Source: an uncultured bacterium
Lineage (GTDB): Bacteria; Babelota; Babeliae; Babelales; Vermiphilaceae
Reading direction: 5' to 3'
Assembly: GCA_963713925.1 (NCBI GenBank)
Contig: OY970212.1
Span: 128,001 to 192,000 of the forward strand
Length of the DNA: 64,000 bases
The translations under genes and the position numbers were made by a program. Shown here piece by piece: positions 698 to 49,691 of this stretch. The notes under the pieces were generated by a model, which was not told the origin of the DNA, ran no database searches, and was given only the letters and a program-made list of their open reading frames with translations. Position 1 is the stretch's first letter. Each line of letters begins with the position of its first letter.

Positions 698-3100
698 ATG
701 AAGATCAAATTCCTCCCTTCAATCTATTGTGCCATCTTTTCTTCCGTATTTTTTATCGTCAGTTCCGAACCTACCATCGGTTTTGAAGTGGTGCGTGATG
801 AGCCACGCCATTCAATTGATATATGGGTTGCTGCTACTTCGCAGGTGTGGGATCGATGCGATCGCGGCGACAATTCGTCAAATTATCATGATTCTGGATC
901 GCACAATGATCCGAACGATCGGGACAGAATATCGGATCATGAGCGCGACATGGCTCGTGAAGGTAGGCATGAGTCTCGAGAGAAAAATGATTACACGGAA
1001 GTATCGTCGACCGCGCACGGTTCGCGTCTCAATTTCGGTCCTCAAGTAAGGAAACGAATATCTCAACCGGGAGTTACTTTCAGGAGTGATGGGTTATTTG
1101 ATTCGTCCACATCACTGTCTGATTGGTCGGTGACCGATTTTTGTGGTGCAATCATCACCCAGAATGAAGCGTGTTATCAAGAGTTCAAAGAGAGTGCGCT
1201 GTGGCTTTCGAATGAAAGCGGTAGCAAGATTTTTATCAAACGTAGATTCGTGGAAGATGTTATACGGCGATATTCGTTGTATGAAAATCCTGCATTTATC
1301 CAAGTGATCAAAACACTGCCGTTCGTGCGTGAAAGTATGGCTCTTCTGGATTATGACATACGATGCGGAAATTTTTGGGTAGCTCCCGACGATCACGCGC
1401 GGAAATCGATTCGCACATTGCATGAGCAATTTGAAAAAGACAGGCGATACAAAGAGCAACGGGAAGTTTTACACAGCTATCACATTCCCGAAATAATTGC
1501 AGATCAAACTCGACCGAGTGTCACCGATCCGATGTATCACATCATCGATCCGAAGATGCAGCAGCTGTGGGACGCGCGACATGATGCTTATGAACAAACG
1601 AGAAATGACCCAACCGAGATTGCGCGAGAATACATGATCTCGGCGCAAACGCGCGATTATTTGCTCAATCACGGCATCAATCCCGACTCGCTACAATATT
1701 GCTGCGGCAACGCGATACAACAACAATTTCATAGAGAATATCTTTCGATCGCGAATGCTTTCGCGAAAATAGATGCGCTCGGCAAAGGCGAAGAAACAAT
1801 GCTCGATTTGATGTTCAAACTCATCAAAGAGGCGGCCGAGCATTATTATTACGAGATCGCGGCACTGGCTTCCGATTATTGTAATCAGGCTCTGTTAATA
1901 GCCGATAAATATCTGCAGGCATTCCATGAATATTGTCCGGTGTTATTGCAATATGCGGTAAAGGCGGCCTATGAAGTTGTAAAAACCGGTGTCGTGAGCT
2001 ATGCCAAGTTGGTAGCGGCCGTTACATTGGGAGTATATGATGCGGCGAAAAGCCTCGGCTATATGGCGATCCATCCGATACAAACAGTGGAAGACATGGC
2101 TACCGGCATGGCGCATTTGGGAATCATTCTGTTTAAACACGCAGTGCTCTGGCAAGAATATTTAGACTTATATGAGTATTATGAACCTGATCCGATCAAA
2201 AGAGCTGAAAGAGATAAAAAAGCCCGAGAATTACGTGCTCAAATAAAAAGCGATTATAAAACGGTTTATGAAACGGTAAGAGAATCAAGTAAGGGATTGG
2301 ATGAATTCGGCATCATGCGAAAAGGAGTCGCCTTTGCGGTCGAATGCGTGGTTTTGCACAAGGTGCAGGTAAAATTCTCCGGCGTCGTTAAAAAGACGGG
2401 GATCGCGGGAAAAATTAAGGCAAGTGCCAAGTCGTTTGCCGAAGATGCCAAGGCATTGCTCACAAACACACGGCCCGCTCGAGTAGCGGCGGCCATCGAG
2501 GGAGCTACCGCTCTGCTTGAAGCCGGAGGAATGACCGCTGAAGAATTGGCATTGCTCAACGCGGCGAAGGCTGCCGAAAGTGCGGCAACTGCGGCCGCAA
2601 ATGCCGGTAATGTGGCAAAAACGGCAGTGACCACCGCCGGTGAAATGGCTGAAGCCGTTACAGCAACCGTTGCCGAAGAAGCAGCTGAAGTAGCCGCAAA
2701 AGAAATCGTTGTAACCGGAGAAAAAGCTGCGGCCGAAGCTGCTGCAAAAGCCGTCGCGGAAGAGGCTGCATCTAAAACCGCAACCGCGGCCGAAAAAATC
2801 GTCCGCGCAGCAAGAACTGTCGAAGATATTTTGGAAGAATGTGTGAAGAAGCCTCAGAACAAGGCAAATTTTTTTACAAAGCAATACCAGAAAAGTGGAA
2901 ATTATCAAAGGGCTATGCAAGATTTTGAATCGTTATGTCCTAAAGATGTGAAACCGTTCACAAAGGGAGAAGTTTCTGGATTGCAAGGAAAGTTGGCGGA
3001 TGGAAGAAATGTTTCAGTAAGAACCGGAAGTTCGGGTGAAAATTTGCCAACTTTGCAAATACAAGAAGCTAAGATAAAAATTAAGATACGATATGCGTAA
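698..3100 (+). CDS. Putative polymorphic toxin 1 (signal peptide, central conserved domain, Ala/Glu/Thr linker, ~90 aa basic C-terminal tip)
   Basis: RBS aagga precedes ATG 698 and the N-terminus is hydrophobic. The tip (DFESL...GKLADGRNVSVRTGSS..PTLQIQ..KIRY) resembles small nuclease-type toxin tips as I recall them. Small acidic paralogous genes follow directly. Confidence 0.7.
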   Translation: MKIKFLPSIYCAIFSSVFFIVSSEPTIGFEVVRDEPRHSIDIWVAATSQVWDRCDRGDNSSNYHDSGSHNDPNDRDRISDHERDMAREGRHESREKNDYTEVSSTAHGSRLNFGPQVRKRISQPGVTFRSDGLFDSSTSLSDWSVTDFCGAIITQNEACYQEFKESALWLSNESGSKIFIKRRFVEDVIRRYSLYENPAFIQVIKTLPFVRESMALLDYDIRCGNFWVAPDDHARKSIRTLHEQFEKDRRYKEQREVLHSYHIPEIIADQTRPSVTDPMYHIIDPKMQQLWDARHDAYEQTRNDPTEIAREYMISAQTRDYLLNHGINPDSLQYCCGNAIQQQFHREYLSIANAFAKIDALGKGEETMLDLMFKLIKEAAEHYYYEIAALASDYCNQALLIADKYLQAFHEYCPVLLQYAVKAAYEVVKTGVVSYAKLVAAVTLGVYDAAKSLGYMAIHPIQTVEDMATGMAHLGIILFKHAVLWQEYLDLYEYYEPDPIKRAERDKKARELRAQIKSDYKTVYETVRESSKGLDEFGIMRKGVAFAVECVVLHKVQVKFSGVVKKTGIAGKIKASAKSFAEDAKALLTNTRPARVAAAIEGATALLEAGGMTAEELALLNAAKAAESAATAAANAGNVAKTAVTTAGEMAEAVTATVAEEAAEVAAKEIVVTGEKAAAEAAAKAVAEEAASKTATAAEKIVRAARTVEDILEECVKKPQNKANFFTKQYQKSGNYQRAMQDFESLCPKDVKPFTKGEVSGLQGKLADGRNVSVRTGSSGENLPTLQIQEAKIKIKIRYA

Positions 3101-3114
3101 TAATAGAGGAAAAT

Positions 3115-3522
3115 ATGGAAGAATGGATAGCGTGGGATCCGGTCAAATTAAATTCGGAATATTTTTATGTTTCGATGACCGATGTTGCCGGTCTTGAAAT
3201 AACATTAAGCCCACTGATAGAGAGTGGTGATAAAGTTATTAAAATTTGTTTTAAGGGGCTTGTTCAGGCATATCGATATACGGAAGAGTTGTATACGATA
3301 AAAACTATAGCATTTTTGCATGAAAAATATGAGCCTATCTTTTATACGCGCCGTTATTTTTTCAAAGTTAAAAACTCAGAATATATTGAATGGTTTTTTG
3401 ATATGGCCAGCGGCATTACCGATGCTACAGATCAACCATATCAACATTTCGTCATTTTTACATCTGATGCGCTCATTGACGTGATTTCAGCCGTAGAGCC
3501 GGTGGTTGAGTTCGAGGATTGA
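3115..3522 (+). CDS. Putative immunity protein 1a
   Basis: 135 aa, acidic/aromatic, starts 14 bp after the toxin stop with RBS gagga; paralog of the next gene. Confidence 0.7.
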   Translation: MEEWIAWDPVKLNSEYFYVSMTDVAGLEITLSPLIESGDKVIKICFKGLVQAYRYTEELYTIKTIAFLHEKYEPIFYTRRYFFKVKNSEYIEWFFDMASGITDATDQPYQHFVIFTSDALIDVISAVEPVVEFED

Positions 3523-3537
3523 TCTTTGGACACGAAT

Positions 3538-3951
3538 ATGAATGAAATATGGATTCGATGGCAGCCTATATCGGGTTTAAAAGTCCATTATTATATTGTA
3601 TCTATTACGGACAACGAACAGGGCTTTGAAATTATATTGGAACCGATGCGCAATACGGACAAAAATGTAAAAATTCGTTTCATAGAATCAATTGTCTCGT
3701 ATCGGTTAGTTGATGAGAGTTATGCTGCGGATTTAATTCCTACCAATGAAATGCGTGAAGATCCGACGACACCATGGTGTTTTTTTAGAGTTGAAAATTC
3801 AAGATACTTAAAGTGGTTTATTGATACATCATTGGGAATGGTAGAAATATATGGTCAAACGAAAGCATTTATCCATTTTTCAATTATAACACTTGATTCC
3901 GTGATTGATGTTATATCTCTTTCGGAACCGGTGGTTGAGTTCGAGGATTGA
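3538..3951 (+). CDS. Putative immunity protein 1b
   Basis: Shares W..W.P, YR..xE.Y, FF.V.NS.Y..WF, HF.I.T.D..IDVIS..EPVVEFED with 1a. Confidence 0.7.
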   Translation: MNEIWIRWQPISGLKVHYYIVSITDNEQGFEIILEPMRNTDKNVKIRFIESIVSYRLVDESYAADLIPTNEMREDPTTPWCFFRVENSRYLKWFIDTSLGMVEIYGQTKAFIHFSIITLDSVIDVISLSEPVVEFED

Positions 3952-3966
3952 TCTTTGGATACAAAC

Positions 3967-4083
3967 ATGAATGAAATATGGTTACCCTGGAAATCTATCC
4001 TTGATTTGAAGCTTCATGATAATATAGCCTCACTTAAACAGCGGCTGAAGTTTTGCTGCCAAATGTTCATATTTCAAACTTGA
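3967..4083 (+). pseudogene. Truncated third immunity paralog
   Basis: MNEIWLPWKSILDLKLH resembles MNEIWIRWQPISGLKVH of 1b. Similarity is lost after ~23 codons, with a stop at 4081-4083. Confidence 0.7.
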
Positions 4084-4117
4084 TTTTAAGCTAGTATTAT
4101 AAAAAGGATGTATAATA

Positions 4118-6862
4118 ATGAAATTAAGTTCGTATATTGGTATCGCACTTTCTATGGTCTCATGGAGTATGCAGTATACCGTGTGTTCAAAATCGGAAAC
4201 AGGAAATACTCTGATGGCTGTAAATACCAACCCTATTGATATTAAGAAAAAAGTTTTAAAAAATGGTCTGACTATTCTTGTCAGAGAAGTGCATACTATT
4301 CCGCAAGCAGCATTTCAAATATGGTATCAAGTTGGTTCTCGAGATGAAGCAACCGGAGAAAAGGGGATTGCTCATTTGATTGAGCACATGATTTTTAAAG
4401 GCACCTCAACCTATTCTGAATCAGATATTAATGAAATAGTGCATAAGCTTGCCGGAACTTGTAATGCATTCACCAGCTATGACTATACGGGATACACCTT
4501 TGATGTGCCAAGTCAGAACTGGAGGCCGGTTATTGATATTATCGCCGATTGCATGACCAATGCGCGTTTTGATAGCCAACATCTTGCATCAGAAATGAAA
4601 GCAGTCATTCAAGAATTGAAAATGCGTCGAGATAATTACCCTCTAACACTGGTTGAAAAACTGCGCGCTGCTATGTTTGCAGGACATCCATATCATTATC
4701 CTATCATCGGTGAAAAACAGGATCTCTTCAATGTACAGGGGCCTGATCTCAAACGATTCTACCAAAAACATTATCTTCCAAATAATGCAACCATTGTCGT
4801 GGTTGGCGATGTCAATGCGGCTGAAATATTTGATGTAGTTGAAAAAAAATTAGGAAACATTCCATCAAATCCCAACTATACGCGCGCCGATTTTCAATTG
4901 AATGAAGATATTATTTCTCGCACGGTTTCGTTGTTTCGAGAAATTACTCAACCGGTTTGCTTTGTTGCTTATCTGATTCCCGGGTCAACGACCGGAAATG
5001 ATGATTTGGTTGATTTGATACAGTATTTGCTTGGACATGGCAAAACATCTCGACTTCAACATTTGCTTGTTGAAGAAACTCAGTTGGTCACTTCGCTTGA
5101 TGTGTGGGCATGGAACTGCTTTGATTACAGCACAATTTTTGTTACTTTTGAGCCAAAAAACATGCAAGATCTTGGTCGCATCGAGCAGCTGATTCAAAAA
5201 GAAATTGATTCGCTTGCCAATGAGATTCCTGATGCGGAACTTCAACGCGCATTAAAACAGGCTCAAGTTGATTATTATAAGCTTCTTGAAAGTATACATG
5301 AGCAGGCGTCGCAAATTGGTAAATATTATTTGGCGACTAATAATGAATCATATGTTTACACCATGTTCACCGAGCCTATCGATTCATTAAAAGCTCGAGT
5401 GCGAAACTTAATTAAAACATATATGCGATCTTCCGTTGTGCATCGGGCAAATTTGCTTCCGCTGAACGAGAAAGATAAACAAGAATGGGCGCGGTTACAA
5501 AAAAAATCTGATGAGCTTGATACCACTATTCTTGCAAATCACAAACGTACGACTCCTGTTGAGCCCGGAAAAGCAGTTCATTCGATCAAGGCATCGCCAG
5601 TCAAAGATTTTAAATTTCCAAAAGCCGAGGTTATCCCTCTTGAAAATGGACTCACACTTCTTTTAAATAACAGTGGGCAAACGCCGCGCATCAGCATTGA
5701 GGGTGAGTTTAAGACAAAATATTATTATGATCCGGAAGACAAACAAGGTTTATTGAAATTCTTGTCATCGGTTATGGAAGAAGGAACGAAAAAATATACA
5801 AGCCGCCAATTGGCACAAGAGCTTGAATCGCGCGGGATGACTCTTGATATCTATCCGGGCGGATTTAGGATGAAGCTACTGGCCCAAGATTTGCAAAAAG
5901 GGCTTGAGCTTTTAATGGATGTGCTAACAAATGCACGGTTTGATGATGCTGATATTGAAAAGGTGCGGGCGCAAATGCTTGCAGATATCGATTCATTTTG
6001 GGACGAGCCAAAACGTTTTTCAAATTTCTTGCTCAAACAACAAATTTATAAGGGCCATCCATTTAGCAAGTCAGATATCGGGACAAAAGAGTCGATCAAA
6101 TCAATCACTAAGGCGGATTTGATCAATTGGTATAAAACACATATAACACCACAAGAAACTTCAATAGCTATTGTTGGGAATTATGACAAACAAAAGCTTA
6201 AAGCAGCCTTGGATGCAACACTCGCTCGCTGGACTGGGCCAAAAGTTTCATCAATTACATTCCCTCCATTGGCTCCTGTAAAAGCTGAAGAGAATATATT
6301 CACCATCAACCGAGATCAGGTTATTTTGGCTCTCGCAGGGCTTTCTATTGATCGACTGAATCCCGATTACAATAAGTTATTATTGTTTGATCAGGTGTTC
6401 GGTGGAGGTGTTCTTGGATCAATGGCTTCACGACTGTTTCAATTGCGTGAACATTCGGGATTATTCTACACCATTACCGGATCGACGGTGGTGGGAACAA
6501 CCGAGCAGCCCGGCATGGTGCTTGTCAAAACAATTGTATCCCTTGACCGTCTTGCAGAGGCTGAAAAAGCAATTAAGGAAACAATTGCAACAGTAATTGA
6601 CTCTATCACACCGGTAGAACTTGAACACGCAAAAGAAGCTATTATTAATAACTTGTCGAAGATGTTTGAATCAACAGGCACCATTGCGCAGGTACTTCTC
6701 TTTTTGAATCGATATAAATTACCTCAAGATTATTACGATACGCTAGCTTCACATTTGCAGAAAATAACTTTAGAGCAAGTGAAAGAAGCGGCGCGAAAAG
6801 TGCTTGATAATAATAAAATGTTATCGTATAAAGTTGGCCGTCAATTAGAAACAAAGAAATAA
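4118..6862 (+). CDS. M16 family zinc peptidase (PqqL/insulinase-like, fused two-half)
   Basis: HLIEH inverted zinc motif in GSRDE..GEKGIAHLIEHMIFKG; degenerate second half; hydrophobic N-terminus. Confidence 0.92.
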   Translation: MKLSSYIGIALSMVSWSMQYTVCSKSETGNTLMAVNTNPIDIKKKVLKNGLTILVREVHTIPQAAFQIWYQVGSRDEATGEKGIAHLIEHMIFKGTSTYSESDINEIVHKLAGTCNAFTSYDYTGYTFDVPSQNWRPVIDIIADCMTNARFDSQHLASEMKAVIQELKMRRDNYPLTLVEKLRAAMFAGHPYHYPIIGEKQDLFNVQGPDLKRFYQKHYLPNNATIVVVGDVNAAEIFDVVEKKLGNIPSNPNYTRADFQLNEDIISRTVSLFREITQPVCFVAYLIPGSTTGNDDLVDLIQYLLGHGKTSRLQHLLVEETQLVTSLDVWAWNCFDYSTIFVTFEPKNMQDLGRIEQLIQKEIDSLANEIPDAELQRALKQAQVDYYKLLESIHEQASQIGKYYLATNNESYVYTMFTEPIDSLKARVRNLIKTYMRSSVVHRANLLPLNEKDKQEWARLQKKSDELDTTILANHKRTTPVEPGKAVHSIKASPVKDFKFPKAEVIPLENGLTLLLNNSGQTPRISIEGEFKTKYYYDPEDKQGLLKFLSSVMEEGTKKYTSRQLAQELESRGMTLDIYPGGFRMKLLAQDLQKGLELLMDVLTNARFDDADIEKVRAQMLADIDSFWDEPKRFSNFLLKQQIYKGHPFSKSDIGTKESIKSITKADLINWYKTHITPQETSIAIVGNYDKQKLKAALDATLARWTGPKVSSITFPPLAPVKAEENIFTINRDQVILALAGLSIDRLNPDYNKLLLFDQVFGGGVLGSMASRLFQLREHSGLFYTITGSTVVGTTEQPGMVLVKTIVSLDRLAEAEKAIKETIATVIDSITPVELEHAKEAIINNLSKMFESTGTIAQVLLFLNRYKLPQDYYDTLASHLQKITLEQVKEAARKVLDNNKMLSYKVGRQLETKK

Positions 6863-6882
6863 TTATTCCAAGATTTGAAGAT

Positions 6883-6953
6883 ATAAAATGCCATGATTCG
6901 GGTCCCAAGCGCAGTGAAGTGAAGCTTGGGTTTGCTTGATCATGGCATTTTAT
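6883..6953. terminator. 15-bp inverted repeat (terminator-like) with a family-2 palindrome in its loop
   Basis: ataaaatgccatgat (6883-6897) pairs with atcatggcattttat (6939-6953); inner gggtcccaagc...gcttgggttt. Confidence 0.55.
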
Positions 6954-7013
6954 GTTTAGTGCTGATATGCTAGTATTGGTCAGTTATTTATATAAAATTT
7001 TGCAGTCGGAATT

Positions 7014-7826
7014 ATGAAGTCTATTTTACTTTTTTTGATGCTGTGTCCAGCATTTGATGTTCAATCGGCCAGTTGTTATGACGATATTAAAAGAATCAAA
7101 AGCGTGCTCAATGAGGCTGATCCCGATAAGGAATTAAGTTGTAGTAGGCAAAAATTGATTTTTAGTTGTATTGGATTTTCCAACAACCCAAGTACGCTCG
7201 ATGATGTGCTCGAGACATGTCTTCAGGAGGGGCAAAAGAAGATGGCATACAACAGCTTTATAGCTACTTTGGTGGGAGTCGGGGCAAATATTTCCGATGT
7301 TATATCTGGATCGAGCAAAAAAGATGAATATATAGTTACTGTGGCAAAAGCCACAAAGAAGCATTTGTTATGTAATGAACAAGTGCAGTTTAAAATTTTA
7401 TTGGGTACGAAGCTTTTTTCTGGTTGGTTGTTAAATGATTGGTTGTTGCTTGCAGCAGACACAGGAAGATATGAGGCGTTGCAGCCACTTATACAAGCAG
7501 GGGCGACAGTTTGCGCGACAGATTCTGATGGAAACACTATCCTTCACCTACTTACCCAAGATCCATACAAGAAAGAAGTTCCTAGTCCGAGCGATATTAT
7601 GTGTTCGAATGCTGTTGCATTAGAAGTCTTAGCAAAAAAAAACAGAGAAGGGGAAACGTTTCTTGATTGTGCGGATCCCAAAAAAGAAACAGGACAAAAG
7701 ATGATCCAAGGATGTTGGGATCGTTTTGTGCAAGAAGGCATTATTTCTGTCGGAGATAGAAGCCCCAGCTACACAAGAAAGAAGAAGCTTATGTTGGATG
7801 TTTTAAAGAAACAATCAGACGAGTAA
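7014..7826 (+). CDS. Secreted ankyrin-repeat-like protein
   Basis: Signal peptide; LLLAADTG..EALQPLIQAGA..ATDSDGNTILHLL and NREGETFLD ankyrin-type motifs. Confidence 0.7.
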   Translation: MKSILLFLMLCPAFDVQSASCYDDIKRIKSVLNEADPDKELSCSRQKLIFSCIGFSNNPSTLDDVLETCLQEGQKKMAYNSFIATLVGVGANISDVISGSSKKDEYIVTVAKATKKHLLCNEQVQFKILLGTKLFSGWLLNDWLLLAADTGRYEALQPLIQAGATVCATDSDGNTILHLLTQDPYKKEVPSPSDIMCSNAVALEVLAKKNREGETFLDCADPKKETGQKMIQGCWDRFVQEGIISVGDRSPSYTRKKKLMLDVLKKQSDE

Positions 7827-7845
7827 AAAAAATCAGAGGACGAGC

Positions 7846-10231: not shown

Positions 10232-10403
10232 TTTAAAAACCTCATTTTTATATAAAATACTAATTAGCTCAATATGCTTGACAATATAGCATTAATTATT
10301 CAAGTTGACAAATGCTTCAATTTGTAGTTTGACGCTTTAATCTCATTCTCTTACACTGGAAAATGCTTATTTTTAAGATTTCTTAGCTCGAAAAGATACG
10401 TTT

Positions 10404-11075: not shown

Positions 11076-11079
11076 TATT

Positions 11080-12998: not shown

Positions 12999-13007
12999 GG
13001 TTGAAAT

Positions 13008-14703: not shown

Positions 14704-15276
14704 TTACTCATCATCGACGTCATCGAATCCGTCATCTTCATCATATTCCTTCTTTGCAAGGAGTGTGTGCTTAATTAAAGCTGCCATCAACTCTGTTGGG
14801 TTGATATTAGTCTTTTGAATGATGAGTCCACCTTTTGTTTTTCCACTAGAGCTGTTTTGCGGTTTCAAAACGCCATCTTCATAGGCGAGATATAAAAATT
14901 TTCCAGCAGGGAAGCGATAAGATTTTTGATCTACGTCTCCATTAGGCTTTGAAAAAGATACGTGAAGTATTGTTTGTTTTTCTTTATCAATTTTTGCTTG
15001 ATAAGGCACTATATCTTCTCCTTTTATTAATCGTTTTTTTTCAGGAAGAAGAAAGGTGTTGTTAAAATCGTCATTTTCCAATGTAACTTGTAATGGTACG
15101 GACATGTTGTTAATCAACTCAAATTCTGCAGGATTATTCTGAATTTTTAATTTTCTTGCTGCTGCATTCATTTTCGTAGGATCGACATCATGAACAACTC
15201 GATCTCGATCTGCTGGATGTATTTGCATTGATACAATCAAAATTCCAAATAACGCATGGAATAACTTACTTTTCAT
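14704..15276 (-). CDS. Secreted hypothetical protein, paralog
   Basis: Start MKSKLFHALFGILIVSMQIHP overlaps the upstream stop; FEL.N.M, Y.F..GK, LKPQ..GKT.GG motifs. Confidence 0.7.
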   Translation of the reverse strand: MKSKLFHALFGILIVSMQIHPADRDRVVHDVDPTKMNAAARKLKIQNNPAEFELINNMSVPLQVTLENDDFNNTFLLPEKKRLIKGEDIVPYQAKIDKEKQTILHVSFSKPNGDVDQKSYRFPAGKFLYLAYEDGVLKPQNSSSGKTKGGLIIQKTNINPTELMAALIKHTLLAKKEYDEDDGFDDVDDE

Positions 15277-37095: not shown

Positions 37096-37120
37096 GGATT
37101 AATGATGATTTATTTTTAAG

Positions 37121-40066: not shown

Positions 40067-40081
40067 AAAATGACACACTTA

Positions 40082-40319
40082 GAGCTTATATGAAATTCCC
40101 AGAAGTTGCTCATTGCTATGTCAGGGCAGAATTTATTTCAGGATCTACTTAACCTGGATCCAGCCTTTTACCCAAATTCAGCGTGCGCTTCATTTGGGAC
40201 CCAGCCTTCGCTTATCCAGGCTTTCGGGCTTGGTAAGCTACGGCGGACAAGTTGCTGAAACAAGTGCCTCTTGACAACCAACCCCTTTTAGTTAGAAAGC
40301 TTAATTTTCGGATAAGCTC
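40082..40319 (-). mobile_element. MITE (TIR GAGCTTATccGAAAaTT), 238 bp, with nested palindromes
   Basis: Imperfect TIRs; TTA/TCA flanks; colinear with the 59357 and 63361 copies. Confidence 0.85.
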
Positions 40320-42450: not shown

Positions 42451-43316
42451 TCATTTTTACTTTCATTAAAAGGTAGTTCCATTTTTCGGCATTCCCAACA
42501 CTCAAATGGAAATGAATCGTATAAGACTTGCAAGTCACATTGGACGGGCGGCTCTCCGCCTAAAATTAAGGCTTCTTCAATCGAAGTTGCAGCTTTGAAT
42601 TCTGGGCGATTCGTTCCCCAATAATAGTCTTGATATTTTAACAGGGGCTCATTTTCGGTGACCTTCAAAAGCCGGGCCGGAATACCGAAAGCTTCAGCTA
42701 CAACAAGTCCATGTAATGAGCTTGAGATAACGAATTTACTATCAACTATTTTTTCAACAACGATGTCCCATGGTTCAGTGGGATACACCACATTTTGATA
42801 TACATCCTTGGGAAATAATTGTTCTTCAGAGTAGTGAGGAATAATAATGTATTCATATTTCGGATTCTTTTTTCTTTTGAATTCAGGAAAAAAATAGGGC
42901 ATAAGTAACGCGGGGTCACCATATACTTCTGGGCATGTGATGCCAAAATTTTCGATCAAAAATTGTCGCGTTATTGGCCCTCTGACTGCGCGAACATCGA
43001 GTCCATTAAATCTATAATATTTCAGATCAAGCCATTTGCCGTTGACTCCTGAGCCCCAAATGACATCATTATCGCGGGCAAACGTCATTATTGAGCCGAT
43101 GGCTAATAATTTCTTTTCTTTCACTCCAGCATTTTTATCAAATACGCGAACCGATGTTTGCACGATCCGTTCAACTAATTTGAGCGACAAGTAATCGCCG
43201 AAATTAATAAATTTATCGTTCCAGTAGTAAAGCGGGAGCGCTTTGTTCGATAATGCATTGTTCCCGATTAAGCAAAAAGAAAAAAGTATAAAAATAAAAA
43301 AATTAGATCGCTTCAT
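42447..43316 (-). CDS. Polysaccharide pyruvyl transferase
   Basis: NFGD.LS, WGSG, AVRGP, GDPA, SSSLHG..AEAFG; signal peptide. Confidence 0.88.
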   Translation of the reverse strand: MKRSNFFIFILFSFCLIGNNALSNKALPLYYWNDKFINFGDYLSLKLVERIVQTSVRVFDKNAGVKEKKLLAIGSIMTFARDNDVIWGSGVNGKWLDLKYYRFNGLDVRAVRGPITRQFLIENFGITCPEVYGDPALLMPYFFPEFKRKKNPKYEYIIIPHYSEEQLFPKDVYQNVVYPTEPWDIVVEKIVDSKFVISSSLHGLVVAEAFGIPARLLKVTENEPLLKYQDYYWGTNRPEFKAATSIEEALILGGEPPVQCDLQVLYDSFPFECWECRKMELPFNESKNE

Positions 43317-43427
43317 ATTGATCTCATTCTCACTTTTTTTGTCAGACCAAAATCCTTAATAGGAGAGAGTTTACCAGAGATCACATTTTAAAAACAACCT
43401 AATAGTTAGATTGCATATGAAAAGATT

Positions 43428-44111
43428 CTATTTCTTATGTTTACGCACATATCGCACAATCCATTGTGTAACCATTGGAAGCAATGCGACGAAAGCGCAT
43501 AGAACTAATATCCCCATCATGCGCCACGAGACAATATCGTGCAGGCTTTCCATCGTGCGCAATTGCCCGCCCGCTAGGGTATAGACCAAAGTTAATGGTA
43601 ATGACCCAAGTAGGGTGGTCCAAAAAACAGTAAACAGCGAAATGTGTGAAAAGACTGCCAGTGCATTAATAAAACTCAATGGCACAATCCCCAAAAATTG
43701 GAGCATCAATAAATAACTCGCCCCATGTTTTTTTATTTTTTCTTCGTATTGACCATATTTCTGGCGCAACTGATCGTGCATATACCGAGTAAACAGAAAT
43801 TGAAAAACAAAATAACTAATGATCGAGGCGATAACGCATCCCAGTACGGTGTACACAAATCCAACCCATGGCCCGAACAAAAAGGCTCCCGTAACACCAA
43901 ACAAGGGCACGAGAGGCAAACCTATGATAAGCACAACCGTCATGACCGAGAGAAATATGAAGCTTGCAAGCGCATAATGGCGCGGCACTTGTTGTGATAA
44001 TGAAAGAATAGCCTGTTTTATCGGCTGAAATCCGGCAGAAGTTATATATCGTCCGACTAAGAAGAACAAGAGAATACCACATGCGATAAAAACGACCTGC
44101 TTTAATTTCAT
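43428..44111 (-). CDS. TVP38/DedA (VTT) family membrane protein
   Basis: TGAFLFG.W.G, TM pattern, degenerate R..P..P..N motif (QFLGIVPLSFIN), T.LGSLP. Confidence 0.8.
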   Translation of the reverse strand: MKLKQVVFIACGILLFFLVGRYITSAGFQPIKQAILSLSQQVPRHYALASFIFLSVMTVVLIIGLPLVPLFGVTGAFLFGPWVGFVYTVLGCVIASIISYFVFQFLFTRYMHDQLRQKYGQYEEKIKKHGASYLLMLQFLGIVPLSFINALAVFSHISLFTVFWTTLLGSLPLTLVYTLAGGQLRTMESLHDIVSWRMMGILVLCAFVALLPMVTQWIVRYVRKHKK

Positions 44112-44208
44112 AACAATCCTATCATTGAGTAGTGCATAACCCGATACATTAATTATAAAAAAAGAAGCACACATCTTGATAGATATGCGCTTCTTTAAAA
44201 ATAGTAGT

Positions 44209-45063
44209 TTATTCAGATTCTGAAGTCGAGAGATTAGACACTGATGATGATGGTGATAATGATTGCGATAAATCTTCTAGGTTGTTTGAATCATTGGAAT
44301 TGTGGCTCGTGCTTGATGGAAGCAAAGAACGAGTCGGGTTAAGAAAGCCGGCTGTTATCGCGGCATGAAGAGTTTGATGTATTACTCTTTCAAAACCTTT
44401 ATTTTGTTTAGAAAATTCTTCTTGCATAGTTGTTCTAACCGTGTTGGCAACCTCTAGCGTGAGCTCTTTTTTGAAAGTATCAAACTCTTGTTTCAAATAG
44501 TCCCTCGTTACTTGTTCATCTCTCATTTTGGTGATTTGATTCAAAACAAGGTCCTTCGCACTCGCCACTTGGTGCATAAAATTTGGCAACGTTTCTTCTG
44601 TCAATGTATTCACCTTTGTATCAACATCGACCAAAAGCCCATTCAAAACATTAGTTTTTTTATTTAATGTATTAGTATCGGTTTTTAATCCAGCAAGGGT
44701 TAGTGTTGTTTTTTGATTGAATTTCCAAAGATTGACATTAAGAGTTTCAACGCGACCTTGAGTTTTTTTCGCAATGCCTGTCAGCGTCGTCACCTCTTTA
44801 TGTACGTCTCCCAGCTCTCTTTTCACATCCGTTGTTGCATTGCTAAGGTTATCAATCTTACCCTCAACCACCCCAAGCTGTTCCTTAATCTCACCAAGCT
44901 CTCTCCATTGAATAAACTTTAATCTAATAAGCTCAGCACCGAGAATAATGGTTGGCGCGGCTGCTCCGGTGAAAATGAGCCATATTTTATCAGCGGCGTT
45001 TGTTTTTTCAACAAAGGATGCGCATGCAAGACTCAAGAAGACAAGTTTTTTTGTGATGTTCAT
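44209..45063 (-). CDS. Signal peptide + TM + long coiled coil + Ser-rich tail protein
   Basis: Heptad periodicity over ~aa 55-215; Ser-rich C-terminus. Confidence 0.6.
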   Translation of the reverse strand: MNITKKLVFLSLACASFVEKTNAADKIWLIFTGAAAPTIILGAELIRLKFIQWRELGEIKEQLGVVEGKIDNLSNATTDVKRELGDVHKEVTTLTGIAKKTQGRVETLNVNLWKFNQKTTLTLAGLKTDTNTLNKKTNVLNGLLVDVDTKVNTLTEETLPNFMHQVASAKDLVLNQITKMRDEQVTRDYLKQEFDTFKKELTLEVANTVRTTMQEEFSKQNKGFERVIHQTLHAAITAGFLNPTRSLLPSSTSHNSNDSNNLEDLSQSLSPSSSVSNLSTSESE

Positions 45064-45254
45064 TCAATAAATCCTTGTGAATGTTTTTTGAAACATTGCA
45101 AAGTGTAAACTTTTTTTTATAACTTGTACATTGTCATACATATAGAAATAGCTGTGGATCAAAGATTTCAAGCGAAGCCTAAAATATCTTGTTTTTGGGT
45201 CCCCGCACGCAGTGTAGGGTATCAGCATGGGGTTTTAAAAAAGAGGAATAACTC

Positions 45255-45929
45255 ATGTGTTTTTCTGCCAATGTTAGTTTTGTAAGTGCCGGAATTCTGG
45301 CCCTCATCGGCATCACCTGCTTTGCTCTTTCAAAAACAAAGGGCGAGCGATTTGTGTCATCAATACCTCTGTTTTTCAGTATTCAGCAACTCATAGAAGG
45401 ATTTCTGTGGCTTACCTTGCCGGGAAATTCATCATTTGCTTCGTTGTTGACATACAAATATCTCTTTTTTGCACTGGTGTGGTGGCCGATTTGGATGCCG
45501 ATTTGCATTGCCGTGTATGAAACGAATTTTTGGAGAAAGGGAGCGATCGGTATATGCGCGATCTTAGGAATTTGCACCGGTATTTTTTATCTCAAACAAC
45601 TTTTTTTGTATGGCGCAACAGCAAGTATACATAACACACACATAGCCTATGACTTGGTGCAACCACTGAGTTTGCCGATGGGTATTATTCTCACACTGCT
45701 CTATTTTGTATGCGCGATCATTCCCTTTTTTATATCGAGTCGTCGATATATGTGGGCTTTGGGGGCGGCTATCTCAGCTTCATACGTCATCTCGTTTATT
45801 TTTTACTATGCGAACCTTGGTTCAATATGGTGCTTCTGTGCCGCCATTATAAGCGCACTGACATTGTGGATACTATGGCAAAATCAGAAAGAACATCGAA
45901 ACGAAATAGTGGACACGGATTATTTTTAA
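45255..45929 (+). CDS. Multi-pass membrane protein (MCFSA..SF, DUF6629-like)
   Basis: MCFSA.VSF, P.FF..QQ..EG..W, S.WCF.AA; RBS gagga. Confidence 0.75.
   Translation: MCFSANVSFVSAGILALIGITCFALSKTKGERFVSSIPLFFSIQQLIEGFLWLTLPGNSSFASLLTYKYLFFALVWWPIWMPICIAVYETNFWRKGAIGICAILGICTGIFYLKQLFLYGATASIHNTHIAYDLVQPLSLPMGIILTLLYFVCAIIPFFISSRRYMWALGAAISASYVISFIFYYANLGSIWCFCAAIISALTLWILWQNQKEHRNEIVDTDYF
45859..45929 (+). repeat. 71-bp direct repeat, left copy
   Basis: 69/71 identical to 49780-49850. Confidence 0.95.
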
Positions 45930-45964
45930 GCATCAGATCTTCATGGTTACTACTGTATAAGTAG

Positions 45965-46309
45965 CTATGCTCGAGTTTTTTCATGGGATAATGAGTCTGC
46001 TAAGTCGATAGCCTCTTGAAGGTATTTTTTCATTTCTTCTAATGTTTTACATCTTTGTTTGTAAATTGGTTTTGTCCAATCTTCATTCCGAATAATCCTT
46101 ATCATAAAAGAACCATCCGGCTTAGTTGCGGGATAATAACCCACATCTACGCAAAGAGCTTCTCCAAACTCTATTTGAATTAGATCCTCTGTAAAGAAAA
46201 ACTTTTGATCATCAAAAGGAATCTCAGGAGCTATTTCAAAACTATCATATTCAAGTACGCCTGACTTTATATCGATAGCATACAAGTAATTGCTTTTAAA
46301 TTTTTTCAT
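45965..46309 (-). CDS. Putative immunity protein 2e
   Basis: EDLIQ...VDVGYYP...G.F....W..PIY...CK...MKKYLQEAIDLAD family. Confidence 0.75.
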   Translation of the reverse strand: MKKFKSNYLYAIDIKSGVLEYDSFEIAPEIPFDDQKFFFTEDLIQIEFGEALCVDVGYYPATKPDGSFMIRIIRNEDWTKPIYKQRCKTLEEMKKYLQEAIDLADSLSHEKTRA

Positions 46310-46634
46310 GGGATAACGAATCGGCTAAATCGATAGCCTCTTGCAAGTATCTTTTCATTTCATCTATTGATTTACAACACTTGTCATATGAGGGCTTTTC
46401 CCAATCTTCATGTAAAATAACTTCTACCATGAAAAATCCGTTAGGCTTACTTGCCGGATAATAACCTACATCCACACAAAGAGTTTCTCCAAACCCTATT
46501 TGAATAAGATCTTCTGTGAAAAAAAGATTTTGATTTTTAAAGGGAGCGTTAGGATTTATTTCAAAATTATCATAATCGAGTGAGCCGGATCTCAATTGTA
46601 TATTTTTTAAGAAAGAGCTTTTAAATATTTTCAT
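46296..46634 (-). CDS. Putative immunity protein 2d
   Basis: Same family motifs. Confidence 0.75.
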   Translation of the reverse strand: MKIFKSSFLKNIQLRSGSLDYDNFEINPNAPFKNQNLFFTEDLIQIGFGETLCVDVGYYPASKPNGFFMVEVILHEDWEKPSYDKCCKSIDEMKRYLQEAIDLADSLSHEKI

Positions 46635-46677
46635 AATCAGTCTTTTAAATGATACCGATATTCTTCATATTGATTCA

Positions 46678-47025
46678 TTACGATTGTGCACGTGGCATGC
46701 GATACATTTCATCGGCAAGATTGATTGCTTCTTGGAGATACTTTTTCATGTCTTCCAATGATTTACATTGCTTTTTATAAATTGGTTCATCCCAATTTTC
46801 ATCTAAAATAACTTCTATCGAAAAAAAGCCATCGGGTTCAAATTCAGGGTACCAGCCGACATCCACAATAATTGATTTCCCAAAATTCATTTGAATAATG
46901 TCTTCTTTATATGATAATTCTTGTTTTTCAAATGATACTAATGGATCTATATCAAAATCATCAAACGTCAACTTTCCACTTTTAACTGTAATGTTTTTTA
47001 GATATGGGCTTTTAAATTTTTTCAT
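46678..47025 (-). CDS. Putative immunity protein 2c
   Basis: Same family motifs. Confidence 0.75.
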   Translation of the reverse strand: MKKFKSPYLKNITVKSGKLTFDDFDIDPLVSFEKQELSYKEDIIQMNFGKSIIVDVGWYPEFEPDGFFSIEVILDENWDEPIYKKQCKSLEDMKKYLQEAINLADEMYRMPRAQS

Positions 47026-47341
47026 GGGATAACGAATCGGCTAAATCGATAGCCTCTTGCAGGTATAGTTTCATTTCGTTGATCGATTTACAACGCTTAT
47101 CATATAAGGGCTTTTCCCAATTGCTTTCATGGATAACAAAAATCCTAAATGCGCCCTTGGTATCTATTGAAGGATACCACCCAACATCAATGGTGTAATT
47201 TTTGGGATAGTTAATCTGTATTAAATCTTCTTGTAACAATAGTTTTTGACTTTTAAGTGGAATATTTGGATCGATTTCGAAGCTGTCAAAAATGCGATTA
47301 AACCTCTTAAGTTTAATTTCGCTCAAATATGGACTATTCAT
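47012..47341 (-). CDS. Putative immunity protein 2b
   Basis: Same family motifs. Confidence 0.75.
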   Translation of the reverse strand: MNSPYLSEIKLKRFNRIFDSFEIDPNIPLKSQKLLLQEDLIQINYPKNYTIDVGWYPSIDTKGAFRIFVIHESNWEKPLYDKRCKSINEMKLYLQEAIDLADSLSHEKI

Positions 47342-47697
47342 TATGATTGTGCGTGGGGCGTTCGATACATTTCATCGGCAACATCGATTGCTTCTTGAAA
47401 ATATTTTTTCATTGTTTTTACATCTTTACAATATTTTTTGTAAATAGGATTTTGCCAATCATAGTTGATAGCGACCATTATTTGAAATTGACCATCTTTC
47501 TCAAACTCCGGATTCCATCCAACATCAACTGTAATGGGTTTTCCATCCTTAAAACTTATTAAATAAATAATATCGGAAGCAAGTAAAGATTCTTGTTCTT
47601 CAAGTGATAGATCCGGATCGATTTGAAAATCGTCGATGATCAAACTACTTGATTTGATATCGATATCTGAAAGATAATCACTCTTAAAATATTTCAT
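47341..47697 (-). CDS. Putative immunity protein 2a (toxin-proximal)
   Basis: Starts 5 bp after the toxin stop; same family. Confidence 0.75.
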   Translation of the reverse strand: MKYFKSDYLSDIDIKSSSLIIDDFQIDPDLSLEEQESLLASDIIYLISFKDGKPITVDVGWNPEFEKDGQFQIMVAINYDWQNPIYKKYCKDVKTMKKYFQEAIDVADEMYRTPHAQS

Positions 47698-47702
47698 CTA
47701 TT

Positions 47703-49691
47703 TTATATCCTTATACCACTTTCTTTTAAAAGATTTTTGTATTCTTGATAAGGTATTGGATGTCCATGTATAGTGTTTGTGGTCATTTCTATTCTACTGT
47801 ACTGTGTTTCAATACCATTTTTGGCGCCAATGATTTTACCCCAATCCATAACCTTCCATCTGCCATCTTTTACCGAGATTCCTTGTTCCCAGCCTAACCG
47901 TTCAAGTTGTTCTATATTTACTCCCGGCTTATATCTTGCATTTCCATGACGGGTGCTTTCTACAATCTCTTTCCAACTGAGCCTAGGCTGAGGACGATGT
48001 TTTGGATAATCTTGTGCCCATTCAACTTTTGATGCCCCATTTTTTGATTGATCGATACGACTTGATTGATCGGTTTTTGTCTGGCGCAAGTTATTACTCG
48101 TGCTGTCATCAATCATTTTAAAAATTTGTCCATCGGGAGTGGTGGCAACAAATTCGCGTTGACGATTTTTGTAAAACTTACGCAGTTTTTGAGCAGCTTT
48201 CTTTGCGCCTTTGATCAGTTTCCTGGCACTTTTCATCAAAGTGTAATCGGCACTCAATTCACCGCCAACACGGCCGAAGTCTCGCAGCGAATGCTCTAAC
48301 TTGTATGTTCCGTCATGGATGCCTTTAAACCGATCGGTAATGCCTTTGAACTTTTCACTCAGTTCGGCTTCTGCCGCTTCTTTGCCTTCAAAGCAATACA
48401 GGCCGAGCGTTTCGCCTATTTCAACGCCGAGTTGAAATGCGCTGTAACATAAGAATGCTTCTTTTACTCCCGGGACAAACACTCCAGCAGTGATCACTCC
48501 GGCAACCATGAGACCTTGGACAATAGTTTCCGGAATTCTGCTTTGCACCCCGTCAACATAGCCTCCCCATGTGGCGGTCGAATAATCCATTAATGCAGCA
48601 CAAAAGTTGTTTACTTTGGATGCTTTTGTGCAATAGCCTTGCGCATTAAGAGCTCTGCCTGAATCAATCGTTTGTACGAGCTCCGTTATATTCTCACGCA
48701 TCCAAATACTTTTAAATGGATGACTACTTTGCTCAAGAAGCCGGATTGAATCAAGATGGATCTCTTTCTGAATTTCATTTCCATACAAAGTATTCCAATC
48801 GCTCGGATTGAGATTATGTTCTTTGATATAATCATTCAGCTCTTGCGCATTAAATTCATGCACGGCAAAAACATCCCGTGAAAGAGTGATAAGATCTTTT
48901 TTGTATCGATCTGGAACTTCGCTTGGATCAACTACCTTTTCGATCCAACAACGCATGTTTTTGTTGTAATCTTGAAACTCAGGGAAATCTTTTCTGAAGT
49001 GTTCATGAATGATGAGGTATTTTTCTTCTTTTGCGGAAGTTGCTTCCGGTTTTTGTTCCCGAACCGGTTTTGAGTCATTTGAGGCTTGTTGATTCGAAAT
49101 AGCTTGTTCTTGAGCCGCTTTTGACTCATTAGGCGTTTGATAATCAGGGAGAGGTCCATGGGCCCGAGGCTCTTTGGATAGTAAAAGAATTCGTCGCGCT
49201 TCAGCTTTCTTTTGAGCAACCCATTCTTCTTGCGGTACTTTCCTAGAGTCATTACTATTTATTCTCCAACGAGATTGTGGTATTTCAGCTTCCTTCAGAA
49301 CTTGTTCATAAGCACGGTATTCTTCTTTCGTGAGTGTAAATTTTTGATCGTTATCGTATACGATATATACAACATCAATACCATCGGATTCGATCTGATT
49401 GGGAGACTTGTTTTCTTGAGAATTGTCATATCCAAGAAGTTTTTTTATTCCTTTATAAGTCAAATAACCAGCACCTATAGTTGCAACAACGATACTTATG
49501 ATCGGAATTTCCGATATTCTATCAAAAAACTTGTTTTGATTCTTTTGTCTATCATTATTTCCGTTTTGACTATTCCTGTTGCCTTGATCCAAAAGATTGG
49601 GGCCGTTGTTGTTCGGGTCATACGGATCATAATAAGATGAAATATTTTGTATTGAGAAGATCGATAGGATGATAAAAAGAAGTGTGCGCAT
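47703..49691 (-). CDS. Putative polymorphic toxin 2 (signal peptide, central conserved domain, C-terminal PKH...HGHP tip)
   Basis: RBS agagga before ATG 49691. The tip PKH..SWKEIVEST..G.ARY...IGA..G.ET...RIE....IHGHPI resembles RNase-type toxin tips. Five paralogous small genes follow. Confidence 0.78.
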   Translation of the reverse strand: MRTLLFIILSIFSIQNISSYYDPYDPNNNGPNLLDQGNRNSQNGNNDRQKNQNKFFDRISEIPIISIVVATIGAGYLTYKGIKKLLGYDNSQENKSPNQIESDGIDVVYIVYDNDQKFTLTKEEYRAYEQVLKEAEIPQSRWRINSNDSRKVPQEEWVAQKKAEARRILLLSKEPRAHGPLPDYQTPNESKAAQEQAISNQQASNDSKPVREQKPEATSAKEEKYLIIHEHFRKDFPEFQDYNKNMRCWIEKVVDPSEVPDRYKKDLITLSRDVFAVHEFNAQELNDYIKEHNLNPSDWNTLYGNEIQKEIHLDSIRLLEQSSHPFKSIWMRENITELVQTIDSGRALNAQGYCTKASKVNNFCAALMDYSTATWGGYVDGVQSRIPETIVQGLMVAGVITAGVFVPGVKEAFLCYSAFQLGVEIGETLGLYCFEGKEAAEAELSEKFKGITDRFKGIHDGTYKLEHSLRDFGRVGGELSADYTLMKSARKLIKGAKKAAQKLRKFYKNRQREFVATTPDGQIFKMIDDSTSNNLRQTKTDQSSRIDQSKNGASKVEWAQDYPKHRPQPRLSWKEIVESTRHGNARYKPGVNIEQLERLGWEQGISVKDGRWKVMDWGKIIGAKNGIETQYSRIEMTTNTIHGHPIPYQEYKNLLKESGIRI

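Follow-up and report, generated by a model that had tools for sequence, protein, structure and literature searches.

The combination of a signal peptide with a lineage-specific constant domain has been described as a toxin class for other lineages (PMC3482391). MafB-N (Neisseria), Microscilla-N as well as APD1 and APD2 (Amoebophilus) bear a signal peptide, a lineage-restricted constant domain and a variable tip, in loci without a repeat stalk or dedicated secretion gene (PMC3482391). A similar arrangement, with a putative signal peptide, was found in a gene family of the Babelota (Dependentiae), two members of which, toxin genes 1 and 2, are located in the window analysed here, a stretch of 64,000 nucleotides from contig OY970212.1 (GCA_963713925.1). 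However, the Babelota constant domain, in the following called carrier, can lie far behind the putative signal peptide and occurs in 85 genera, whereas the domains of MafB, Microscilla-N and APD directly follow the signal peptide and are restricted to one genus or species, APD1, APD2 and Microscilla-N being set apart by their description. The carrier was unmatched to the one MafB compared (hhalign probability 0.65) and has no MafB-N/DUF1020 domain, and the two window loci showed neither a MafA-like partner nor a lipobox, although the tip of gene 1 (tip 1) also resides in a Neisseria maf cassette.

Tips are also shared with CDI, Rhs and pyocin systems. Tip 1 is found C-terminally in CdiA-like as well as Rhs proteins, and together with its immunity family it is carried by a Fil_haemagg_2/PT-VENN protein and by Rhs proteins; the tip of gene 2 (tip 2) is found on an Rhs protein of Salmonella bongori (PDB 8QJC) and, with its immunity family, on an S-pyocin-like protein of Klebsiella. 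In contrast, the Babelota carrier proteins showed no FHA, VENN, YD-repeat, PAAR or pyocin domain. TPS/FHA repeats and VENN gave no Pfam match on the window genes or on seven paralogs, and the marks of Rhs and type VI secretion systems (YD-repeat core, PAAR/VgrG, sheath genes) were absent; VipB was not found in the source genome (95.75% complete), the control search being positive in E. coli. A preliminary description of this DNA had seen no Rhs, FHA, LXG, PAAR or intein motifs, and neither window protein matched Rhs, FHA, LXG, PAAR or Hint.

Putative toxin-immunity arrays in small-genome bacteria dwelling in protists were described for the Bodo saltans endosymbiont (PMC8163844) and Odyssella (PMC3482391). 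The Bodo system belongs to an alphaproteobacterium possessing a T6SS and consists of three operons that contain orphan modules (PMC8163844; carriers compared by description), whereas in Babelota many full-length genes are scattered on the chromosome, followed mainly by spare immunity genes. According to a survey of polymorphic toxins, immunity genes are mostly missing from intracellular bacteria, which were inferred to rarely fight conspecifics, with Odyssella as exception (PMC3482391). A single-cell study described its Babelota genomes as devoid of toxin-antitoxin systems, in a screen for a different class of systems (PMC12644861).

Homology of the two window genes

Both open reading frames had been delimited correctly in the preliminary description (Table 1). 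Gene 1 encodes a signal-peptide-like N-terminus, in which no lipobox was seen by sequence reading, a variable region, a divergent carrier, an Ala-rich linker and a basic tip of ~98 aa. Gene 2 encodes a signal-peptide-like N-terminus, a variable region, a carrier ending in TTPDG, a linker and a basic tip of ~110 aa. Direct comparison yielded only 29.3 bits (E 6e-4, 20% identity over 132 aa) and gene 1 ranks with the most divergent family members, as might be expected if the motif were common to both genes by chance. Such a coincidence is hardly conceivable and was ruled out by leave-one-out profiles: the profile from the other eight paralogs detected gene 1 at E 6.7e-10 (next ORF 0.91; 4,106 ORFs) and a profile without the gene-2 clade detected gene 2 at E 3.1e-13, the next-best ORF in these searches scoring 0.6–0.9. 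With a profile from four third-party paralogs, gene 2 was retrieved at 5.9e-16 and gene 1 at 7.7e-4. The central region proposed to be common to both loci is therefore significant in profile searches, and the homology of gene 1 and gene 2 is real despite the weak pairwise score.

The two genes are also connected by a natural chimera. A third paralog (C1:1236210-1238087) combines the body of gene 2 (43% over 510 aligned residues, E 5e-119) with the tip of gene 1 (40%, E 5e-12); one immunity-1 and one immunity-2 gene come next, in this order, and the paralog shows tip swapping directly. In total, the source genome (1.32 Mb) holds nine family members including both window genes, bearing seven different tips, among them Ntox21, EndoU and two Ntox17 above Pfam cut-offs; a CdiI_ImmP gene follows another. 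The N-terminal part of gene 1 recurs in a split pair (C1:545101/545828), which was left uncounted, its downstream ORF having no carrier match. As had been proposed, tips 1 and 2 do not align to each other, and the small downstream genes, two paralogs after gene 1 and five after gene 2, belong to unrelated families (hhalign probability 0.04).

Table 1. Features of the two toxin loci in the window
Feature	Position	Strand	Basis
Toxin gene 1 (P0001, 800 aa)	698..3100	+	ORF read from sequence, ATG at 698
Gene 1 N-terminus resembling a signal peptide (approximately aa 1-23)	698..766	+	sequence reading and family hydropathy
Gene 1 carrier core with CCGNAIQQQFHRE motif	1556..2110	+	profile E 2.6e-34 (profile itself contains the gene 1 sequence)
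Tip 1, unnamed alpha+beta toxin-like domain	2804..3097	+	sequence comparison and model
Immunity candidate 1a (135 aa)	3115..3522	+	sequence comparison
Immunity candidate 1b (42% identity to paralog 1a)	3526..3951	+	sequence comparison
71-nt direct repeat, left copy, at 3′ end of DUF6629 gene	45859..45929	+	
Four further immunity-2 paralogs (47012-47341, 46678-47025, 46296-46634, 45965-46309)	45965..47341	-	
Immunity candidate 2a, first of five paralogs	47341..47697	-	sequence comparison
Toxin gene 2 (P0002, 662 aa)	47703..49691	-	ORF read from sequence
Tip 2, homologous to the Rhs toxin domain from S. bongori (PDB 8QJC)	47706..48035	-	E 2.5e-19
Gene 2 carrier	48105..48932	-	structure model and family comparison
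TP[DE]G junction of gene 2	about 48129-48143	-	
71-nt direct repeat, right copy (97% identical to left)	49780..49850	+	

The carrier domain and its distribution

The conserved motif reported earlier exists, but its form is CyGNqLQqqLHqE instead of GNxIQxxxH, and it is part of a ~190-aa domain; the motifs quoted begin at residue 320 of gene 1 (nt 1655) and residue 287 of gene 2 (nt 48833). The carrier is composed of this ~190-aa core and Gly/Ala helices, frequently with TP[DE]G at the end, a clean copy of which is absent from gene 1. The helices follow the core as described, but their hydrophobicity is only moderate: a Kyte-Doolittle mean of 1.6 over 19 residues is attained by 15% of 117, with a median of 1.34. 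For the gene 2 carrier, the core was confidently modelled as two short strands and a three-helix bundle (pLDDT ~90) and the Gly/Ala helices with lower confidence. In family members, the carrier is located up to ~800 aa past the putative signal peptide, from which a variable region separates it, and some members have two copies. Hydropathy alone was used to assess the signal peptides, a hydrophobic stretch being present in the first 45 aa of 81% of 123 members (control residues 60–105: 4%).

The carrier core was detected in 133 of 261 genomes of the phylum (85 of 145 genera; no carrier in the other 128) and in 1,109 clusters at 50% identity, the copy number ranging from 0 to at least 17 per genome. 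Toxin-immunity pairs on one common carrier are present in about half of the species-level genomes of this reduced and obligately intracellular phylum. Some copies may be truncated, as 17 of 129 matched ORFs either ran into a contig end or continued for less than 200 aa past the core. Among the matches listed (150 of the 1,109 clusters), all six relatives with organism names are Babeliales/Dependentiae, and single-query searches found no carrier in phages, plasmids or viral contigs. A GTDB pattern scan of low reach detected three carrier loci in one record only, and crowded word-index queries gave at least 24 and at least 5 matches. None of 85 carriers matched a Pfam family at E<=0.01, no NCBIfam match was obtained on the two window genes, and neither a PDB sequence search (best E 0.92) nor Foldseek with the carrier model (E<=0.001) returned a match. 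The best VIA-align score (Z 8.7, to a designed helical protein) is in the generic helical-bundle range, and these structure-search misses do not establish a new fold. The carrier may be lineage-specific to Babelota and, in agreement with the earlier view, is apparently unnamed. Its language-model look-alike is PT-TG (PF14449; 0.88), a lead only.

Exchangeable tips and their downstream genes

The C-termini are not invariant, the tips of 112 relatives falling into 30 clusters. Pfam toxin families at E<=1e-3 were matched by 46 tips (39 above the curated cut-off), including EndoU, Ntox17, Ntox21, Ntox35 and colicin D/E3; tips with named families are nucleases, mostly RNases, and no ubiquitin-system or ankyrin domain was found among the 112. 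The other 66 have no Pfam toxin match, so the carrier profile can be used as a mining tool for new candidate antibacterial enzymes and antidotes. An adjacent downstream ORF on the same strand follows in 110 of 112 cases; 98 of these 110 have no Pfam match, and CdiI_N and CdiI_ImmP followers occur in relatives. With respect to net charge, 80% of the tips are basic and 94% of the followers acidic. Of 421 pairs with a common downstream family, 387 also share the tip family (shuffles: mean 39, maximum 87); a single EndoU cluster accounts for 300 of the 387, and of the remaining 96 pairs 87 couple too; the statistic indicates association only, and related genomes are not independent. The polymorphic toxin layout proposed earlier, i.e. 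a constant carrier, a variable tip and a cognate downstream gene, thus extends across the phylum. It is nearly certain that these genes form a phylum-wide polymorphic toxin-immunity family with a conserved carrier, exchangeable tips and tip-specific followers that move together.

The homology and structure comparisons of both tips that had been suggested led to PDB 8QJC for tip 2 and teneurin-2 for tip 1. In tip 1, R775, S778 and T785 are invariant and K796, R798 and Y799 nearly so, and aa 787 is Gln, where relatives nearly always have Glu. Its model (pLDDT 91) matched best residues 2573–2666 of teneurin-2 (Z 6.9, rmsd 3.1, 81 aligned); comparison with the CDI complex 5T86 for the BECR fold gave Z 4.3 (rmsd 3.3, 70 aligned). 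PPR/TPR matches were discarded, their scores being sums over designed repeats. A word-index search with tip 1 matched only tip 1 itself, and its language-model look-alikes, unnamed clusters (0.92–0.93) and Ntox37 (0.83), are leads only. In the alignment of tip 2, H565, R586, H642 and H644 correspond to the proposed catalytic H1437, K1458, H1515 and H1517 of 8QJC, the predicted RNase residues of the Salmonella Rhs toxin thus being retained in tip 2; RNase fold and activity are a prediction in the S. bongori preprint as well. By homology, the tips are not new, but stem from the repertoire of polymorphic toxin domains shared among bacteria.

The immunity-1 family is located downstream of tip 1 at all five tip-1 loci of the source genome and, outside the phylum, at a Duffyella CdiA-like locus (follower hhalign 97.8%), and the immunity-2 family downstream of tip 2 at the Klebsiella S-pyocin-like locus (97.5%), likewise outside the phylum; neither immunity family had a match in the PDB. 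Tip 1 also occurs on three further source-genome genes without carrier, each with immunity-1 genes, and one of these matches PT-HINT. Since toxins that combine a signal peptide with a Hint-like part and bear tip 1 and immunity 1 are present in the same genome, tips move between two carrier classes; unlike PT-HINT toxins, the Babelota carrier family has no Hint match. Orphan tip/immunity cassettes were not found at the two window loci, which contain spare immunity genes only, and at locus L085 a tip is repeated downstream.

Direct repeats of the neighbouring gene end bracket several islands, which therefore look inserted and excisable. In the window, the 71-nt pair flanks a 3,921-bp island consisting of gene 2 and its five immunity genes, and repeats of 171, 83, 81 and 39 nt were found elsewhere. 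Several loci, gene 1 included, showed no flanking repeat. In a relative genome (G153), the DUF6629 gene has no adjoining toxin island, but the site is not a clean empty site, as the downstream neighbour differs too.

Export, targets and alternative explanations

As noted before, secretion genes are not found nearby: none of the 42 further window ORFs matched a secretion family at E<=1e-8. The source genome encodes two secretins and two T2SSF genes; CdiB/ShlB gave no match there, nor in any control genome. Judging from the hydropathy proxy, the protein would leave the cytoplasm by Sec, the follower neutralising the tip inside the producer, and may cross the outer membrane via the type II secretion system or vesicles. 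The carrier could then serve for display or uptake, the tip being freed near the TP[DE]G junction to cut tRNA or rRNA of a neighbouring bacterium in the same protist, most probably a related strain of Babelota or a different endosymbiont. Taken as a whole, this chain from family through Sec export and delivery to RNase action on a neighbouring bacterium is probable. The T2SS/vesicle route leaves the entry of a ~70 kDa protein into another bacterium's cytoplasm unexplained.

The tips might instead be released into the protist to cut host cytosolic or mitochondrial RNA, the followers protecting the producer only; nucleotide supply, killing of the host or host addiction would be possible purposes. 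RNase tips such as EndoU could act on host RNA just as well, and the Sec/T2SS route naturally delivers to the host compartment. Babelota live as strict intracellular parasites and have large secretomes; Chromulinavorax replicates wrapped in a host mitochondrion and sheds outer-membrane vesicles (PMC6561590). Furthermore, the toxin operons of the Bodo endosymbiont were proposed as a host-addiction device (PMC8163844), and APD1/APD2 of Amoebophilus, with constant N-termini and variable tips, were predicted to be host-directed (PMC3482391). Yet self-protection alone does not need arrays of 2–5 diverged immunity paralogs, nor an immunity-2 gene retained behind a gene whose present tip is tip 1; the named tips belong to interbacterial systems, and the absence of ubiquitin-system and ankyrin domains from the 112 tips points the same way. 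We consider host-directed action unlikely. Immunity genes that are spare or do not match the tip of their locus are in keeping with a defence against toxins arriving from kin.

Even less probable are selfish addiction cassettes that persist as their loss harms the cell, export being incidental or vestigial. Repeat-bracketed islands and the variable copy number would suit them, but an intracellular toxin-antitoxin pair needs neither a hydrophobic N-terminus nor a large carrier, both of which are widespread in the family, and several loci lack a repeat. That the released RNases degrade viral RNA as niche defence against giant viruses or phages in a shared protist is very improbable: giant viruses and bacterial symbionts including Babelota do co-occur in single protist cells (PMC12644861), but cognate immunity turnover fits bacterial rivals better. 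Overall, the analysis suggests that intracellular Babelota fight rival bacteria within a shared host. The abundance of carrier toxins points to strong competition inside protists, and the family makes superinfection exclusion and co-infection accessible to tests.

The family also poses in compact form how a rival is entered by a Sec-exported protein without needle or stalk. Tentatively, the carrier could be a self-contained entry module of an unnamed delivery class which, after Sec/T2SS or vesicle export, crosses the envelope of another bacterium or of the bacterium-like mitochondrion in the protist and frees the RNase tip at TP[DE]G, perhaps by means of conserved Cys, His, Glu or Asp residues of the carrier. 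If so, about half of an obligately intracellular phylum would possess a strain-specific kill-and-immunity code, spread as repeat-flanked islands, that decides on ownership of the host cell.

With regard to the surroundings, a promoter/terminator scan was near chance (19 versus 13.5 ± 4.4), and no RNA data set was listed for the region. One low-depth soil DNA run matched it without differences or joints, which is uninformative on excision. TLC ATP/ADP translocases are present in the source genome.

Homology of the window genes and tip exchange in the source genome

The positions and downstream sets of small paralogs reported in the preliminary description were confirmed for both genes (table). 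Pfam and NCBIfam searches gave no match for gene 1, gene 2 or any of the seven small downstream genes (followers). The claimed homology of the central regions of genes 1 and 2 was marginal in a direct alignment (29.3 bits, E 6e-4), yet leave-one-out profiles searched against the 4,106 ORFs of the source genome (G000) recovered both (E 6.7e-10 for gene 1, 3.1e-13 for gene 2), the next-best ORF scoring 0.6-0.9. A profile of four paralogs belonging to neither window-gene clade likewise recovered gene 2 (5.9e-16) and gene 1 (7.7e-4). By these profile comparisons, the two genes are truly homologous, gene 1 being a divergent member.

Nine genes of the source genome (one 1.32 Mb contig, 95.75% complete) contain the carrier region, and their tips are of seven kinds: two genes have tip 1, two Ntox17, and one each tip 2, Ntox21 and EndoU; the last two tips are without Pfam match, and a CdiI_ImmP gene follows one of them. 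Downstream of the Ntox21 carrier, four small acidic genes that are unrelated to each other look like a polyimmunity run; one of them weakly resembles colicin immunity genes. In the chimera, which combines similarity to gene 2 with similarity to tip 1, an immunity-1 gene comes first downstream and an immunity-2 gene second. Tip 1 also forms the C-terminus of three genes without carrier, which represent a second toxin class in this genome; one has a PT-HINT match, while the other two are Hint-like by eye. Since tip-1 genes on other bodies and the chimera keep immunity-1 followers, the follower travels with the tip and not with the body.

Coordinates of the features (C1, contig of the source genome; L002-L009, loci fetched from it; other L handles, loci of relatives)
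Feature	Location	Strand	Remarks
Gene 1	window 698-3100	+	800 aa (tip 1, aa 703-800); two related 135-141-aa genes downstream
Gene 2	window 47703-49691	-	662 aa (tip 2, aa 553-662); five related 109-118-aa genes downstream
Chimera	C1:1236210-1238087		43% identity to gene 2 (510 aligned residues), 40% to tip 1
Hint-like tip-1 gene	C1:74454-76001 (L002)		PT-HINT match; signal-peptide-like start; immunity-1 pair
Hint-like tip-1 gene	C1:555946-557688 (L004)		signal-peptide-like start; immunity-1 pair
Hint-like tip-1 gene	C1:1206015-1207153 (L009)		signal-peptide-like start; immunity-1 pair; apparently split over two reading frames
Four small acidic genes behind the Ntox21 carrier	C1:93029-94893 (L003:4030-5894)
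ORFs without carrier match in our search	C1:545101-548972 (L004:2102-5973)		ORF like gene 1 N-terminus, then 498-aa ORF with an Ala-rich linker and a tip weakly matching Tox-REase-3 (E 0.099); four small genes related to each other come next
Presumed serine-recombinase-like ORF	C1:604059-605582 (L005)		by eye, from a motif; at one of the carrier loci, convergent with its immunity gene
Tip 1 joined to another long body	L177:1-2907 (genome G146)		then immunity 1, orphan partial tip, second immunity 1
Two cores or several matched stretches	L090:1886-5809; L158:3325-6990; proteins P0026-P0028		within one 1,200-1,450-aa protein
71-nt direct repeats	window 45859-45929 / 49780-49850		97% identical; duplicate DUF6629 gene end; enclose gene 2 and five followers
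171-nt repeats	L004:11923-12093 / 14770-14940		around Hint-like tip-1 gene
83-nt repeats	L006:2740-2822 / 7357-7439		around EndoU carrier and a neighbouring gene
81-nt repeats	L009:3819-3899 / 6073-6153		around Hint-like tip-1 gene
39-nt repeats	L007:790-828 / 5983-6021		around another carrier
Polysaccharide-synthesis region	window 19471-43316
777-aa protein gene	window 51886-54219		adjoins uvrB
NamZ-like (exo-beta-N-acetylmuramidase) genes	window 54448-56983		tandem pair

The carrier and its distribution in the phylum

Most carriers have a hydrophobic N-terminus (81% of 123 versus 4% in the control), followed by a variable region and the core; the core is present in duplicate in two of the proteins fetched. 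The consensus of 125 segments reads R..A...Y.L...L...CyGNqLQqqLHqE...N..G...A..D.CW..L...G...G...HP..T...tpeG; its G, N, R, G and Q are conserved in at least 90%, H in 78% and C in 68%. The conserved Cys, His, Glu and Asp could have a structural, metal-binding or catalytic role. An AlphaFold model was confident for the core (two short strands and a three-helix bundle, pLDDT about 90), while the helices past it were poorly placed (mean 69, pTM 0.54). Searches of Pfam and PDB sequences gave no match and fold searches no clear one, and the carrier appears to be without an existing toxin-domain name; comparison with one MafB was also negative. TP[DE]G at the border of body and tip sits where VENN-type junctions lie in other toxin classes, and is for this reason read as a putative recombination or processing point.

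A nine-sequence carrier profile had matches in 73 of 201 genomes, and a 117-sequence profile in 133 of 261 genomes (among those listed mostly 0.8-1.7 Mb) and 85 of 145 genera. The latter profile also matched 1,109 protein clusters at 50% identity for E<=0.001 and 853 for 1e-10. Among the matches listed, all six relatives with an organism name were Candidatus Babeliales or Dependentiae. From 150 matches listed for the nine-sequence profile, 135 were used for a tip survey (nine of the source genome and six weak or contig-edge ones were excluded) and merged into 125 regions, 120 of which were fetched and yielded 129 ORFs; after removal of 17 that were cut by a contig end or had <200 aa past the core, 112 were kept.

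This profile search of related genomes, proposed in the preliminary description together with the layout of constant carrier, variable tip and cognate downstream gene, bore that layout out, as did the chimera. The last 100 aa of the 112 carriers fell into 30 clusters. Pfam named 46 tips at E<=0.001 (EndoU 28, Ntox17 6, Ntox35 6, Ntox21 4, Colicin_D 1, Cytotoxic 1), 39 of these 46 exceeded the curated cut-off, and two further tips were weak DUF4258 matches. A same-strand ORF lay within -150 to +150 nt in 110 of the 112 and within -40 to +45 nt in 108, these being raw counts. The followers formed 37 clusters, and 12 of 110 had a Pfam match (four CdiI families, one transposase). By net charge, tips were basic in 80% and followers acidic in 94%. 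Among 421 pairs sharing a follower family, 387 also shared the tip family (shuffles: mean 39, maximum 87); 300 of the coupled pairs came from one EndoU group, and 87 of the other 96 pairs coupled too, with kin genomes not being independent.

Predicted tip activities and probable target

For the Salmonella bongori Rhs toxin domain, to which tip 2 is homologous, preprint 10.1101/2024.02.26.582050 gives a prediction of an RNase fold, in which H1437, K1458, H1515 and H1517 are put forward as catalytic residues, and states that cloning required the immunity gene. Gene 2 has H565, R586, H642 and H644 at these positions. A Klebsiella S-pyocin-like protein ends in tip 2, and its follower matches immunity 2. 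Variants of tip 2 occur in relatives at loci L047, L067 and L099. Tip 1 is without a family name. It was found in 31 of 261 phylum genomes. Two Rhs proteins also end in it, as does a Fil_haemagg_2/PT-VENN protein of Duffyella, and it forms a cassette in what we take, from the N-terminal sequence and the layout of an unannotated record, to be a Neisseria maf island. In hhalign comparisons, immunity 1 matched the Duffyella follower (97.8%) and, weakly, a Streptococcus follower (55.9%). The long body joined to tip 1 at L177, a locus of a relative, may be a further carrier class. The predicted model of tip 1 was confident (pLDDT 91), with middling fold matches (teneurin-2 2573-2666, Z 6.9; CDI toxin 5T86, Z 4.3); from its alpha+beta fold and conserved R/S/T/K/R/Y, we infer a putative RNase.

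At the level of sequence, a carrier, exchangeable nuclease-type tips and cognate followers are thus established. The toxins probably target bacteria: the tips, which are those of interbacterial systems, would act on other bacteria, and spare and non-cognate immunity genes, which serve against incoming toxins, would guard the producer. A host or mitochondrial target, as argued for a Bodo endosymbiont in PMC8163844, is the main alternative and appears unlikely. For a bacterial target, entry into the target cell is the weakest step, as no T6SS sheath gene was found in the source genome. This genome encodes TLC ATP/ADP translocases and has two T2SSF genes as well as two secretins; PMC4776705 reports a pair of gspD copies for every TM6 genome that it examined. 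These traits and the organism names of the carrier relatives are the basis on which the source genome is placed in Babelota.

Domain tests set the carrier family apart from MafB, CdiA and Rhs. Going by the description in PMC3482391, it would work like the Sec-dependent toxins that are built on constant domains specific to a lineage, namely MafB-N, Microscilla-N and APD1/2. It is a real phylum-wide system of known kind with an apparently new carrier. The literature searched (main texts, mostly outside subscription journals) yielded no account of such toxins from Babelota, and an earlier mention is possible; the word 'toxin' is absent from PMC4776705, and the sole mentions in PMC4378268 are HicAB and MNT-HEPN.

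Direct repeats and other features of the window

A repeat pair surrounded the toxin in five of 12 source-genome regions scanned. The five pairs differ in sequence, all but the 39-nt pair being ends of neighbouring genes, and share no common att sequence; scans of the gene 1 and chimera loci revealed no flanking repeats. In relatives, toxin and follower were bracketed at about three of 26 loci (L045, L061, L068; ~7 kb windows). Such bracketing suggests homology-assisted insertion or duplication of the toxin islands.

The window also contains a tandem NamZ-like gene pair and a 777-aa signal-peptide-like protein without Pfam family, possibly a host-directed effector. A large region for polysaccharide synthesis encodes epimerases, UDP-glucose dehydrogenase, glycosyltransferases and pyruvyl transferase; its GC content is lower (0.33-0.35 at 22-30 kb), and many of its ORFs lack a strong Pfam match.
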